From Bacteroidales bacterium (GTDB lineage Bacteria > Bacteroidota > Bacteroidia > Bacteroidales > UBA12077), in NCBI GenBank assembly GCA_028282785.1, contig JANQHE010000061.1, forward strand, positions 195,170-259,169: a stretch of 64,000 bases of DNA, read 5' to 3'. The notes below the pieces were generated by a model. That model did not search any database. It saw only the letters and a list, made by a program, of their open reading frames with translations, and was not told the DNA's origin. Each line of letters opens with the position of its first letter. Positions within the stretch are counted from its first letter, which is position 1. The position numbers and the translations under genes are program-made. This document shows positions 24,432 to 27,129 of this stretch, in pieces.

Positions 24432-26795
24432 ATGATTACAAACTACCTGAAGACTGCATTTAGAAATCTAAAAAAACATACGGTATATTCATTTATAAAT
24501 ATTATTGGCCTGGCCATAGGTATGGCGTGCAGTATTCTTATTTTATTATGGGTACAGGATGAGTTAAAATTTGATGGATGGCATTCAAAAAACGATCGGG
24601 TTGAACGCGTTCTTGTTCGTATTATGAATAATGGAGTACCCTATGAAGTAGCTGTTACACCGGCTGCTCTTGCTCCAAATATGCAAAAAGATTTTCCTGA
24701 AATAGAATATGTATGCCGTTTTAAAAACTGGGGTACCTGGTTATTTAAATACCGGGATGGTGAATATATCGGGGCAAATAGTGGTGCTATTGACTCAACA
24801 GCTTTTAATATATTCGATTTTAAATTTATTTCAGGAAATCCTGAAAATGCTTTAACCGATGCGCATAGTGTTGTATTAACAGAAGAGGTAGCAAAGAGAA
24901 TTTTTGGTAAAGAAAATGCTTTGGGAAAGATTCTTGAAGTCAGGGGCCGTGGAGCTTTTAAAGTAACCGGTGTTATTGAAGATGTGACTCATTCACATTT
25001 TGACTTTGAATTTTTATTCCCGTTCCAGGTAATTAAAGACGATGGAGAAAATATTGATGAAATGGGGCAGGGGGCTTATAATTTTACTACCTATTACTTG
25101 CTTAAAAAACCAGGGTTATCGGAAAAAGTTAATGAAAAGTTAAAGACATATCTGGATAAATTTGATGAGGAAAATACCACGGAATTATTTAATCAGAGTA
25201 TTAAAGATATTTACCTTCGTTCAACTTTTGCTTATGATTTTACCTTTAGAGGTGATTTAAATAATGTAATAACATTTTCGGCCATTGCATTCCTGGTATT
25301 GCTAATTGCTTGTATAAATTTTATGAATTTGACAACGGCACGGTCCAGTAACAGAGCCAAAGAAATTGGATTGCGAAAAGTTGTAGGTGCAAAGCGAAAG
25401 ACTGTTGTAAGCCAGTTTTTTACAGAGTCATTATTTATGTCCTTACTATCTTTTATTATTGCCATGATTGTTGTTTTATTATTAATACCTAAATTCAATA
25501 ACATATCAGGAAAAGAACTAACTTCCGGCTTACTGTTAGAGCCATACGTTTTATCCATGTTAATTGGAATAGCTATAATTACAGGATTATTGGCTGGTAG
25601 CTACCCTGCGCTATATTTATCAGCATTTAACCCGATTAAGGTGTTAAAAGGTAAGTTAAGTACCGGAGCAAAAAGTTCTATGTTAAGAAAATCATTAGTA
25701 ATTGTTCAGTTTACTTTATCAGTAGCCCTGATTATCTCAACAATTCTAATTTCAGAGCAAATAAAGTTCATAAAAAATAAGGACCTTGGATATAATAAAC
25801 GGGAGCTTGTTTTTGTGGGAATGAATAGAAATATTAACCAAAATTACGAAATTATTAAACAGGAATTATTAAATAACCCTGGTATTAAAGCTGTCTCTAC
25901 AAGCCGTGTATTGCCTGTTTATGCATGCCCTTCATTTTCATTAGAAGAATGGGAAGGTAAAGAAGATGACAGGTCCATGACTTTACATTTTATAGGTATA
26001 GGTTATGATTTCTTTAAAACGATGGAAATTGATATTCTTCAGGGAAGAGCATTTAGTGAAGAATTTGCATCTGATACAATAAATTCGATAATAATTAATG
26101 AAGAAGCAGTAAGGCAGCTTCAAATGGATGAACCAGTTGGAAAAACCTTAAATGTATTCGGCCAGCAAAGCTATATAGTTGGTGTGATGAGGGATTTCAA
26201 TTTTAACAATGTAAAAAATAAAATTGCTCCTTTAATGTTACATATAGCACCTGAACAGGCACGGTTGTGCTTTATTCGTTTAAACCCTGGTTATTCGCAA
26301 GAAACACTGGATTTTATAAAAGATACCTGGAAATCTTTTGAACCAGACTTCGATTTTAATTATCATTTTATGGATGAAAGATTAGATAGCCTTTATAGAG
26401 CAGAACAGAGAAGTAATACTTTGATCAATTACTTTACGATTTTTGCAATATTTATATCTTGTTTGGGAATATTTGGATTAGCATCTTTTATGGCTGAACA
26501 AAAAACGAAAGAAATAGGTATTAGAAAAGTAATGGGAGCTTCGGTTCCGGTTATCGTAAAAATGTTTTCCACAGAGTTTACCAAACTTGTATTAATTGGT
26601 AATATTTTGGCTTGGCCATTGGCATATTACGCCATGAACAAATGGTTAGAGAATTTTGCATATCATACAACCCTAAAATGGTGGATGTTTATCTTGGGAG
26701 CTTTATTATCTGTTGTTGTAGTTTTATTTACAATTAGTTACCAGTCCTATAAAGCAGCAATAAAGAATCCGGCAATAAGTTTAAGATACGAATAA
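24432..26795 (+). CDS. Two-module FtsX/MacB-type ABC transporter permease
   Basis: 787 aa with two FtsX modules, each preceded by a large periplasmic domain. Paralog of 1..1634, 58928..61300 and 63147..64000. Confidence 0.9.
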   Translation: MITNYLKTAFRNLKKHTVYSFINIIGLAIGMACSILILLWVQDELKFDGWHSKNDRVERVLVRIMNNGVPYEVAVTPAALAPNMQKDFPEIEYVCRFKNWGTWLFKYRDGEYIGANSGAIDSTAFNIFDFKFISGNPENALTDAHSVVLTEEVAKRIFGKENALGKILEVRGRGAFKVTGVIEDVTHSHFDFEFLFPFQVIKDDGENIDEMGQGAYNFTTYYLLKKPGLSEKVNEKLKTYLDKFDEENTTELFNQSIKDIYLRSTFAYDFTFRGDLNNVITFSAIAFLVLLIACINFMNLTTARSSNRAKEIGLRKVVGAKRKTVVSQFFTESLFMSLLSFIIAMIVVLLLIPKFNNISGKELTSGLLLEPYVLSMLIGIAIITGLLAGSYPALYLSAFNPIKVLKGKLSTGAKSSMLRKSLVIVQFTLSVALIISTILISEQIKFIKNKDLGYNKRELVFVGMNRNINQNYEIIKQELLNNPGIKAVSTSRVLPVYACPSFSLEEWEGKEDDRSMTLHFIGIGYDFFKTMEIDILQGRAFSEEFASDTINSIIINEEAVRQLQMDEPVGKTLNVFGQQSYIVGVMRDFNFNNVKNKIAPLMLHIAPEQARLCFIRLNPGYSQETLDFIKDTWKSFEPDFDFNYHFMDERLDSLYRAEQRSNTLINYFTIFAIFISCLGIFGLASFMAEQKTKEIGIRKVMGASVPVIVKMFSTEFTKLVLIGNILAWPLAYYAMNKWLENFAYHTTLKWWMFILGALLSVVVVLFTISYQSYKAAIKNPAISLRYE

Positions 26796-26796
26796 T

Positions 26797-26827
26797 TTTG
26801 AATTTTAATTCAGAACTTCTATATTTG
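26797..26827 (+). promoter_or_regulatory. Bacteroidota-type promoter candidate for the asnA leader
   Basis: -33 TTTG (26797..26800), a 19-nt spacer, then a perfect -7 box TATATTTG (26820..26827), matching the TTG/TAnnTTTG consensus. It lies about 15 nt upstream of the leader ATG. Confidence 0.5.
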
Positions 26828-26842
26828 GTCAATTATTGACAA

Positions 26843-26920
26843 ATGATGATTCAAATTACTAATAATAACCTTTCTAATAATTCTGTAAATAATTCTTTAC
26901 GGATAGGAAGGCAGTTATAG
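26843..26920 (+). CDS. Asn-rich leader peptide 1 (25 aa) of the asnA attenuator
   Basis: MMIQITNNNLSNNSVNNSLRIGRQL then a stop. It has 7 Asn codons in three clusters. Its last codons cover ggaaggc (26906..26912), which is complementary to the left arm of the terminator that follows. Confidence 0.6.
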   Translation: MMIQITNNNLSNNSVNNSLRIGRQL

Positions 26921-26942
26921 TAATCAAAAATATAGATTTTGT

Positions 26943-26976
26943 AAAGCCTTCCATGAACGGAAGGCTTTTTTGTTTT
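26943..26976 (+). terminator. Attenuator terminator 1
   Basis: A 10-bp stem (aaagccttcc / ggaaggcttt) with a 6-nt loop and a T-run (tttgtttt). Confidence 0.75.
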
Positions 26977-26983
26977 AGTTTTT

Positions 26984-27031
26984 ATGATTTTTAACGGAAT
27001 AAATAACAATAATAATAATTCTCCTCCTTAG
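26984..27031 (+). CDS. Asn-rich leader peptide 2 (15 aa) of the asnA attenuator
   Basis: MIFNGINNNNNNSPP then a stop. Six consecutive Asn codons lie at 27002..27019. The stop codon abuts gcagggaagg (27031..27040), which can pair with ccttctctgc (27068..27077) in the terminator's left arm. Confidence 0.65.
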   Translation: MIFNGINNNNNNSPP

Positions 27032-27063
27032 CAGGGAAGGCGATAATCGTATTATATATATCG

Positions 27064-27096
27064 AAACCCTTCTCTGCATTGCATTGAAGGGTTTTT
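27064..27096 (+). terminator. Attenuator terminator 2
   Basis: A 9-bp stem (aaacccttc / gaagggttt), extra pairing inside the loop (tgc/gca), and a T-run. It lies 34 nt upstream of the asnA ATG. Confidence 0.75.
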
Positions 27097-27129
27097 AGTT
27101 GTATGTTAAACCCTTTTAAATAAATTAAA

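Follow-up and report, generated by a model that had tools for sequence, protein, structure and literature searches.

Tandem asparagine-codon leader peptides and alternative RNA folds upstream of asnA in a Bacteroidales bacterium: a probable transcription attenuator

The DNA that we analyzed (the window) is a stretch of 64,000 nucleotides (nt) from a Bacteroidales bacterium (GenBank assembly GCA_028282785.1, contig JANQHE010000061.1, positions 195,170 to 259,169 of the forward strand), and its positions are counted from its first nucleotide. Our subject is the leader region of asnA, which encodes aspartate-ammonia ligase. The identity of the gene, which had been proposed from the sequence alone, is confirmed by a score of 387 bits against the equivalog model TIGR00669 (cut-off 292.8). 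The upstream neighbor of asnA is a gene for a MacB/FtsX-type permease, which ends at 26795. Between the two genes lie two modules in tandem, each with a short leader open reading frame (ORF) that is rich in asparagine (Asn) codons, an intrinsic terminator, and a segment (arm 2) that can pair with the terminator's left arm (arm 3) to form an antiterminator (Table 1). The original prediction took these elements for an asparagine-sensing transcription attenuator, and when we re-examined the sequence, we found the promoter-like element, both leader ORFs, both terminators, and both antiterminator arms where it had placed them.

The putative promoter, TTTG-N19-TATATTTG, fits the -33/-7 consensus for promoters of Bacteroidetes. 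In an alignment of 12 sequences from the window's close clade (alignment A4), both promoter boxes fall in the same columns in all 12 members, and T31, A32, T35, T36, and G38 are invariant. The two modules differ in where arm 2 lies. In module 1, it is inside the ORF, 2-4 codons ahead of the stop codon, and it is exactly complementary to part of the terminator's left arm, as had been claimed. In module 2, arm 2 begins with the last base of the stop codon, and GCAGGGAAGG pairs with CCTTCTCTGC through 9 Watson-Crick pairs and 1 G-U pair, which reproduces the helix of 10 base pairs (bp) that had been described there.

Table 1. Features of the asnA leader region (window coordinates; energies and folds are predicted)
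Feature	Position (strand)	Description
Putative promoter, Bacteroidetes-type	26797..26827 (+)	-33 box TTTG at 26797-26800, 19-nt spacer, -7 box TATATTTG at 26820-26827
Leader ORF 1	26843..26920 (+)	MMIQITNNNLSNNSVNNSLRIGRQL; 7 Asn codons (6 AAT, 1 AAC)
Module 1 helix 1:2 (anti-antiterminator or pause hairpin)	26855..26924 (+)	Would sequester arm 2 if ribosome-free
Module 1 arm 2	26906..26912 (+)	GGAAGGC; partner is GCCTTCC at 26946-26952 in the left arm of terminator 1, giving the antiterminator
Terminator 1	26943..26976 (+)	10-bp stem at 26943-26968, -14.9 kcal/mol, then T-tract TTTTTTGTTTT
Leader ORF 2	26984..27031 (+)	MIFNGINNNNNNSPP; 7 Asn, six of them consecutive; ends SPP-stop
Module 2 arm 2	27031..27045 (+)	GCAGGGAAGG (27031-27040) plus extension; partner is CCTTCTCTGC at 27068-27077 plus neighboring bases, in the left arm of terminator 2
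Terminator 2	27063..27096 (+)	Stem at 27063-27095 with an inner 3-bp extension, -16.5 kcal/mol, then T-run TTTTT
Conserved box	27105..27118 (+)	ATGTTAAACCCTTT; 27108-27116 complementary to 27086-27094, in the right arm of terminator 2
asnA, aspartate-ammonia ligase (regulated gene)	27130..28110 (+)	TIGR00669 equivalog and PF03590

The predicted folds depend on where a ribosome would be. If module 1 is free of ribosomes, then a hairpin at 26855-26924, which joins CCUUUCUA and UCUGUAAA to UUUACGGA and UAGGAAGG, is part of the minimum-energy fold of 26843-26976. Arm 2 is locked within this hairpin and terminator 1 forms (-14.9 kcal/mol). If the RNA is free only from 26905, which is the edge left by a ribosome with the last Asn codon (26891) in its A site, then arm 2 pairs with the left arm of the terminator (-16.1 kcal/mol), and this antiterminator pairing survives when the full terminator sequence is included in the fold. 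With a ribosome at the stop codon, the terminator is the sole possible fold. For module 2, the antiterminator (27031-27077) is predicted at -18.7 kcal/mol, versus -16.5 kcal/mol for terminator 2. A ribosome at the last Asn codon of leader 2 (27017) just clears arm 2, and a ribosome at the proline (Pro) codons and stop codon that end this leader masks arm 2. A comparison of the two states had been proposed as a check on the original prediction, and in each module, the antiterminator has the lower predicted energy.

Both the structure and the coding content of the leader stand out from the background. The fold of the 306-nt leader has z = -4.7 relative to dinucleotide shuffles. Among the 683 small ORFs in the window that begin with ATG (8-45 amino acids, on both strands; the window's GC content is 32%), leader ORF 2 ranks first by the fraction of Asn (47%) and leader ORF 1 ranks third (28%), and leader ORF 2 is the only one with a run of at least 4 Asn. 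More broadly, across 152 asnA loci, small ORFs with runs of at least 3 Asn are found upstream of asnA on the coding strand at 14 loci; among the controls, the opposite strand has 2, the region downstream has 0, and the region far upstream has 1. Across the same 152 loci, runs of at least 3 of any other amino acid had no such bias towards the coding strand upstream. Asn makes up 20-35% of the leaders and, in the window and 13 loci, just 1-4% of AsnA itself (about 1% in Hymenobacter). Also, the leaders favor AAT even in genomes with 54-63% GC content whose asnA genes use AAC: the AAT:AAC counts are 7:2 in the leader and 0:3 in asnA at locus L012, and 4:3 and 0:9 at locus L040.

To find relatives, we scanned genome and metagenome collections for AsnA, which gave 160 loci (identity to the window's AsnA reached 59% and 70%). 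An exact look-up of the window's AsnA sequence found no record. A protein homology search identified closer relatives (66-98% AsnA identity), including Bacteroidales metagenome-assembled genomes (MAGs), and we fetched their contigs. Both modules were present in 10 of 10 contexts fetched after this search, and in 11 of 11 fetched relatives in this range of identity overall; at L162, the sequence ends inside leader 2. The consensus of leader 1 across 11 relatives is M.QITNNNLSNNSVNN.L..GRLL, and that of leader 2 is M....INNNNN(N), then S/R/G, then PP, with 3-10 Asn codons followed by Pro codons. In a pairwise alignment of the window with L081 (70% AsnA identity), the promoter boxes, the Asn codons, all of the helix arms, and the terminators are kept, and the terminator loops, the spacers, and the N-terminal codons of the leaders have diverged. 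Another 15 or so more distant loci have one or two modules, with arm sequences that differ from the window's. Two modules, each with an Asn-rich small ORF and then a terminator, are present at L001, L002, L006, L025, L038, L066, L081, L085, and L123. There is just one module at L040, L060, and the loci from three cultured species, Hymenobacter endophyticus, H. pini, and H. frigidus (L012, L020, and L048). The distant carriers include MAGs that are labelled as Flavobacteriales, Bacteroidales, Anaerolineales, and Pseudomonadota. Overall, the small ORFs with their runs of Asn, the two terminators, and the two antiterminator helices are all kept in relatives, so the comparison that had been proposed with the original prediction came out in its favor.

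The Asn run of leader 2 varies in length even between close relatives: it has 6 codons in the window (27002-27019), 10 codons in L161 (664-693; 98% AsnA identity), and 3-7 codons in the others. These differences point to slippage at the AAT repeat, and a change in the length of the run may tune the sensitivity of the leader.

One alternative is that the terminators are constitutive, that terminator 1 belongs to the permease gene, and that the Asn-rich ORFs arise by chance from AAT-rich, low-complexity DNA in a 32%-GC genome. The genome is indeed AT-rich, and the Asn run of leader 2 does shift by repeat slippage between near-identical strains, but the same arrangement is found in genomes with 54-63% GC content, and Asn runs are enriched solely upstream of asnA and on the coding strand. 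Terminator 1 starts 148 nt past the stop codon of the permease gene and could also end permease transcripts. However, a conserved putative promoter sits between the permease gene and leader ORF 1, and the arrangement of ORF, terminator, and antiterminator is found with asnA even where the gene upstream is unrelated or divergent (the neighbors include a MacB-type permease, PorV, and a divergent ABC ATPase). At L066 and L040, the upstream gene already has its own terminator. Given such varied and in part divergent neighbors, the modules belong to asnA, and we rejected the idea that terminator 1 is merely the permease gene's terminator. Constitutive terminators also leave the complementarity between arm 2 and the terminator's left arm, and the covariation that we describe below, unexplained. 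We consider this alternative to be extremely unlikely.

Across lineages, arms 2, 3, and 4 (the terminator's right arm) change together. For example, the three arms can be GGAAGGC/GCCTTCC/GGAAGGC or GGGGGGC/GCCCTCC/GGAGGGC, and other co-varying sets are CGTTGGGCG/CGCCCGACG, GCGGGTTGG/CCAACAGCCCGC, and AGCTGGGGTT/AACCCCAGCT. In 23 modules, the segment after the Asn run holds a stretch that is complementary to the terminator's left arm, and in most cases it is far better than in shuffled sequences. In an alignment of module 1 from 13 loci, 6 of the 8 pairs of the antiterminator have changes on both sides, and none of 500 shuffles equals the covariation score, which peaks at slide 0. For module 2 of the wider family, the MAFFT alignment was out of register at arm 2, so we relied on duplex predictions for each locus, with shuffles, and on a comparison to the left arms of other loci. 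The mean predicted energy of pairing between arm 2 and the left arm of the same locus is -11.85 kcal/mol, versus -8.57 kcal/mol for the left arms of other loci, and none of 20,000 permutations matched this difference (p < 5e-5). Furthermore, arm 2 of module 1 occupies all three reading frames, depending on the locus: GGAAGG is read as GGA AGG in the window, as T GGA AGG CT in L012, and as TGG GAA GGT in L066. These differences in frame argue that arm 2 of module 1 is under constraint at the level of the RNA.

Within the close clade, pairing is 85% for the structure of the terminated (or ribosome-free) state, 9 pairs of which have two-sided changes, and none of 500 shuffles matches it on any measure. 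Helix 1:2 of module 1 comprises two helices that are 86% and 94% paired, with two-sided changes at 7 pairs. Terminator 1 is 96% paired, and terminator 2 is conserved as well. For the cores of the antiterminators, pairing is about 97% in module 1 and 93% in module 2, with only one-sided changes among G-C, G-U, and A-U; for instance, the window has a G-U pair where its relatives have A-U. One-sided changes are expected for the antiterminators because the segment must pair with two partners. We also considered whether helix 1:2 is a feature of the wider family, and rejected this: for most modules, the duplex energies are no better than those of shuffles, and only module 1 of the close clade is supported.

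If ribosomes control the folding, then the Asn codons should lie at a particular distance from arm 2: from toeprinting, the leading edge of a ribosome with the codon in its A site is expected to be at about the start of arm 2. Across 42 modules, if we count from where the last Asn codon starts to the first paired base of arm 2, the median is +15 nt and the interquartile range is 14-16 nt. The spacing is within 11-19 nt in 36 of these modules, in a search that set no lower bound, and arm 2 never starts more than 12 nt past the stop codon. The rule still holds across lineages with unrelated arm sequences.

This spacing also bears on whether the switch, if real, might be set by something other than a ribosome, such as a protein acting in trans, a small RNA, or the binding of a metabolite to the leader RNA, with the ORFs being incidental or helping to load ribosomes. 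A ligand- or protein-binding RNA would be expected to keep a binding site. Instead, the features that are most consistent across lineages are the Asn codons, their frames, and their spacing to arm 2, even where the arm sequences differ completely. Two conserved blocks, GGAAGGCTATT and the box ATGTTAAACCCTT ahead of asnA, do exceed what ribosome-mediated attenuation needs. Another reason to consider a regulatory protein is that E. coli asnA is controlled by AsnC, a DNA-binding protein of the Lrp family that acts at the promoter. However, neither immediate neighbor of asnA in the window encodes an AsnC/Lrp-family regulator (the neighbors are the MacB/FtsX-type permease on one side and a fragment of a TrlF-family ATPase and a RhuM-family gene on the other); a more distant regulator is possible. 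And within 26000-28000, no riboswitch or T-box in Rfam 15 matched, even at E <= 10. We think that control by a trans-acting factor is very unlikely.

The box ATGTTAAACCCTT is found 12 nt upstream of asnA's start codon and is kept in 12 of 12 members of the clade; it occurs in L081 and L161-L171 as well as in the window. Since the box is complementary to terminator 2's right arm, a helix (4:5) is predicted in the read-through RNA; this helix is 92% paired across the clade, with one-sided changes only. We rejected the 4:5 pairing as a general feature of the family, as it is absent outside of the window's clade.

The second leaders share another feature, which is Pro codons after the Asn run. Pro is found within four codons of the last Asn in 18 of 20 module-2 leaders, and within six codons in all 20, but shortly after the Asn run in only 2 of 22 module-1 leaders. 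Also, all five of the short leaders whose stop codon is just ahead of arm 2 end with Pro-stop. Base pairing might explain the conservation of this C-rich tract in leader 2, but we rejected this because the support for pairing was poor. The Pro codons of leader 2 vary synonymously (CCT, CCC, CCA, or CCG) and Pro itself is kept, which favors a role at the level of decoding. Pro-Pro, or termination after Pro, slows the ribosome, and a ribosome that is slowed at Pro-Pro or Pro-stop would sit exactly over arm 2. These patterns suggest that the Pro codons of leader 2 have a parking function, which would secure termination when asparagine is plentiful.

Alternatively, the leaders might sense another signal, or an additional one, such as the speed of translation, queuosine status (via tRNAs with GUN anticodons), or proline or elongation factor P (via Pro-Pro), and the two modules might read different signals. 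A few module-2 leaders do mix Asn codons with those for phenylalanine, tyrosine, and histidine (MRVNNFSHNFFNTPP at L001 119-166, MKMNFNNNFFYTSP at L002 2354-2398, and MVHTNFNYYFFNAPP at L006 2342-2389), but Asn codons dominate the repeats of both modules at nearly all loci, and it is asparagine that the regulated gene serves to make. In module 2, the Asn run is always followed by Pro codons, which is hardly ever so in module 1; yet Pro is not positioned as an inducing signal, because a ribosome that slowed at Pro would mask arm 2 and favor termination. The sole described tandem attenuator that we found reads two different signals (PMC3641672). Overall, we consider another or an additional signal to be very unlikely, if slightly less so than control by a trans-acting factor.

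We conclude that the asnA leader is probably a ribosome-mediated transcription attenuator of the trp/his/phe type, which senses charged tRNA-Asn and has two complete modules in series. The conservation of the elements, the compensatory changes in the antiterminators, the footprint-like spacing, and the modules' travelling with asnA all favor this reading, which is that of the original prediction. Transcription would begin at the promoter that directly precedes leader ORF 1. With ample Asn-tRNA, the ribosome would pass the Asn codons and mask arm 2, the terminator hairpin (3:4) would form, and RNA polymerase would halt at the T-tract. When Asn-tRNA is scarce, the ribosome would stall with an Asn codon in its A site and its leading edge just short of arm 2. 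The free arm 2 would then pair with the terminator's left arm (2:3) and the polymerase would read on. The gap between the T-tract of terminator 1 and the ATG of leader ORF 2 is just 8 nt, which leaves no room for a promoter, so the modules should act in series and asnA would be transcribed only if both checks were passed. This layout should lower basal expression and give a steeper, multiplicative response. We infer that the leaders are translated, that transcription and translation are coupled in this organism, and that read-through responds to asparagine.

Several observations weigh against this reading. Some of them concern the modules themselves. Terminator 2 has a short T-tract (5 T). In the close clade, pairing in helix 1:2 of module 2 is 69%, which is not above shuffles, and because this helix is weak, module 2 might default to read-through when there is no ribosome. 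Other points concern the comparative evidence. Inside the clade, the arms are almost invariant, so there is no independent covariation for the antiterminators; their covariation comes only from the wider family, which is harder to align. Many of the 42 modules that we used to study the spacing are phylogenetically related, so that number overstates how many independent cases there are. The element is present at only about 9% of the sampled asnA loci. Finally, to our knowledge, coupling of transcription and translation has not been shown in Bacteroidota. The leader-peptide attenuators of this phylum are predicted or are backed only by transcript maps (PMC9723704).

How does this leader relate to known systems? 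At the gathering score, Rfam 15 has no matches anywhere in the 64-kb window. The best match was to Phe_leader (RF01859), which we rejected: it scored 33 bits (the gathering score is 55), the alignment was mostly to the terminator, and there is no run of phenylalanine codons. Neither an Asn-codon leader nor an attenuator for asnA turned up in the literature whose full text can be searched; subscription-only surveys, such as those by Lyubetsky and colleagues on the comparative genomics of attenuators, fall outside of that search. So, the earlier claim that neither an Asn-codon attenuator nor a tandem one for asnA had been described held up, as far as Rfam 15 and the searchable literature go.

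The leader resembles trpL, hisL, pheL, thrL, leuL, and ilvL in having a short ORF that is rich in codons for the end product. As in these enterobacterial attenuators, there are alternative helices 2:3 and 3:4 (with helix 1:2 supported in module 1 and weak in module 2) and an intrinsic terminator, and a stalled ribosome would free arm 2, while a ribosome at the stop codon would mask it. Several of the Asn leaders also end with Pro-stop, as does pheL (...FTFP-stop). Unlike the enterobacterial attenuators, the amino acid here is asparagine, the target is a single gene (asnA), and the leader has two complete modules, one after the other. Sequence homology is also absent, the putative promoter is of the Bacteroidetes type, and the start sites lack Shine-Dalgarno sequences.

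Two other kinds of regulation of asnA are related in function. As with AsnC in E. coli, the regulated gene is asnA, and there would be feedback that responds to asparagine. In Firmicutes, Vitreschak and Wels (both in 2008) are said to have described Asn-specific T-box leaders ahead of asnA and asnS. These too would allow read-through of a terminator, ahead of a gene for asparagine supply, when tRNA-Asn is uncharged. However, a T-box binds the uncharged tRNA directly and does not require translation, and there is no T-box match here. Tandem copies of T-boxes or riboswitches sharpen the response.

In Bacteroidetes, leader attenuation has been predicted for trp (the Bacteroid-trp motif, RF01692; PMC2864571), and, in Flavobacterium psychrophilum, for the ilvE, hisG, aromatic, and trp leaders (PMC9723704, supplement), so neither the mechanism nor its presence in this phylum is new. 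Those leaders resemble ours in phylum, in predicted mechanism, and in the kind of evidence (comparative sequence analysis or transcript maps), but none of them is specific for Asn or lies ahead of asnA, and all of them are described as single modules. The only precedent that we found for tandem attenuators with leader ORFs is the mgtCBR leader of Salmonella, which has the attenuators mgtM and mgtP, one of which reads tRNA charging via Pro codons (Lee and Groisman 2012, PMC3641672). It also has two short ORFs in one leader that each govern an attenuation step in series. In contrast, both of our modules carry Asn as the signal codon, and each has its own canonical intrinsic terminator.

By sequence criteria, the assignment of the asnA leader to the class of leader-peptide attenuators appears to be well supported, and what would be new is the specificity for Asn, the target asnA, and the conserved layout of two modules with the same signal. 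A bolder reading seems to us about evenly poised between right and wrong. In that reading, this is the first ribosome-mediated sensor of asparagine, and it represents an undescribed and widely spread family, found in several orders of Bacteroidota and in MAGs labelled as Chloroflexota and Pseudomonadota. The family would usually have two same-signal attenuators in series, with a multiplicative, switch-like response; the Pro-Pro or Pro-stop of leader 2 would hold the ribosome on the antiterminator arm; and in this clade, the box would pair with the terminator's right arm in the read-through RNA.

If the leader is an attenuator, then asparagine would join the short list of amino acids that are known or predicted to be sensed by leader-peptide attenuation. 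This would be a third solution to the regulation of asnA, unrelated to AsnC in E. coli and to the Asn T-boxes in Firmicutes. The conserved pair of modules with the same signal would be a natural test case for how tandem attenuators affect the basal level and the steepness of the response. It could be tested directly: cultured Hymenobacter have a single module, and many Bacteroidales and Flavobacteriales have two. It would also be clean evidence for functional coupling of transcription and translation in Bacteroidota, which initiate translation differently from E. coli.

There is a practical aspect for genome annotation as well. The leader ORFs were not called as genes in any of the 11 contexts that we fetched (L161-L171). 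At L169, asnA itself was mis-called: the predicted gene (801-1892, 363 amino acids) begins in the leader-2 region and spans terminator 2, and the true start is at 909.

We noticed two variants of the arrangement among the more distant loci. At L049 (2314-2409; a MAG labelled as Aminicenantes) and L086 (1321-1416), there is a different Asn-rich ORF before asnA, which ends with ...NN(K/H)NNNWVV(T/P)ATQ. After this ORF come a hairpin, TTGGGTGG/CCACCCAA, that lacks a T-run, and next a strong Shine-Dalgarno sequence (GGAGG). This may be a translational variant rather than a transcriptional one. In Hymenobacter (L012 2315-2483, L020 2353 onward, and L048 2313-2453), a spacer of about 140-170 nt separates the single module from asnA, and this spacer holds a conserved GC-rich hairpin, AACTCCCGC..GGGAG.

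Downstream of asnA, the window has an insertion of about 3.1 kb (28289-31355) relative to L161, a MAG contig that is 95% identical. On either side of the insertion is a copy of a direct repeat, about 308 nt long (27981-28288 and 31356-31668, 84-99% identical), in which the final 130 nt of asnA and the gene's terminator are found. Among the cargo are a C-terminal fragment of a TrlF-family AAA ATPase (28159-28731), an apparently split RhuM-family gene (28765-29367 and 29400-29783), and ORFs at 29847-30752 and 30749-31318. The insertion looks like a decayed integrative or defense islet with its attachment site at the 3' end of asnA.

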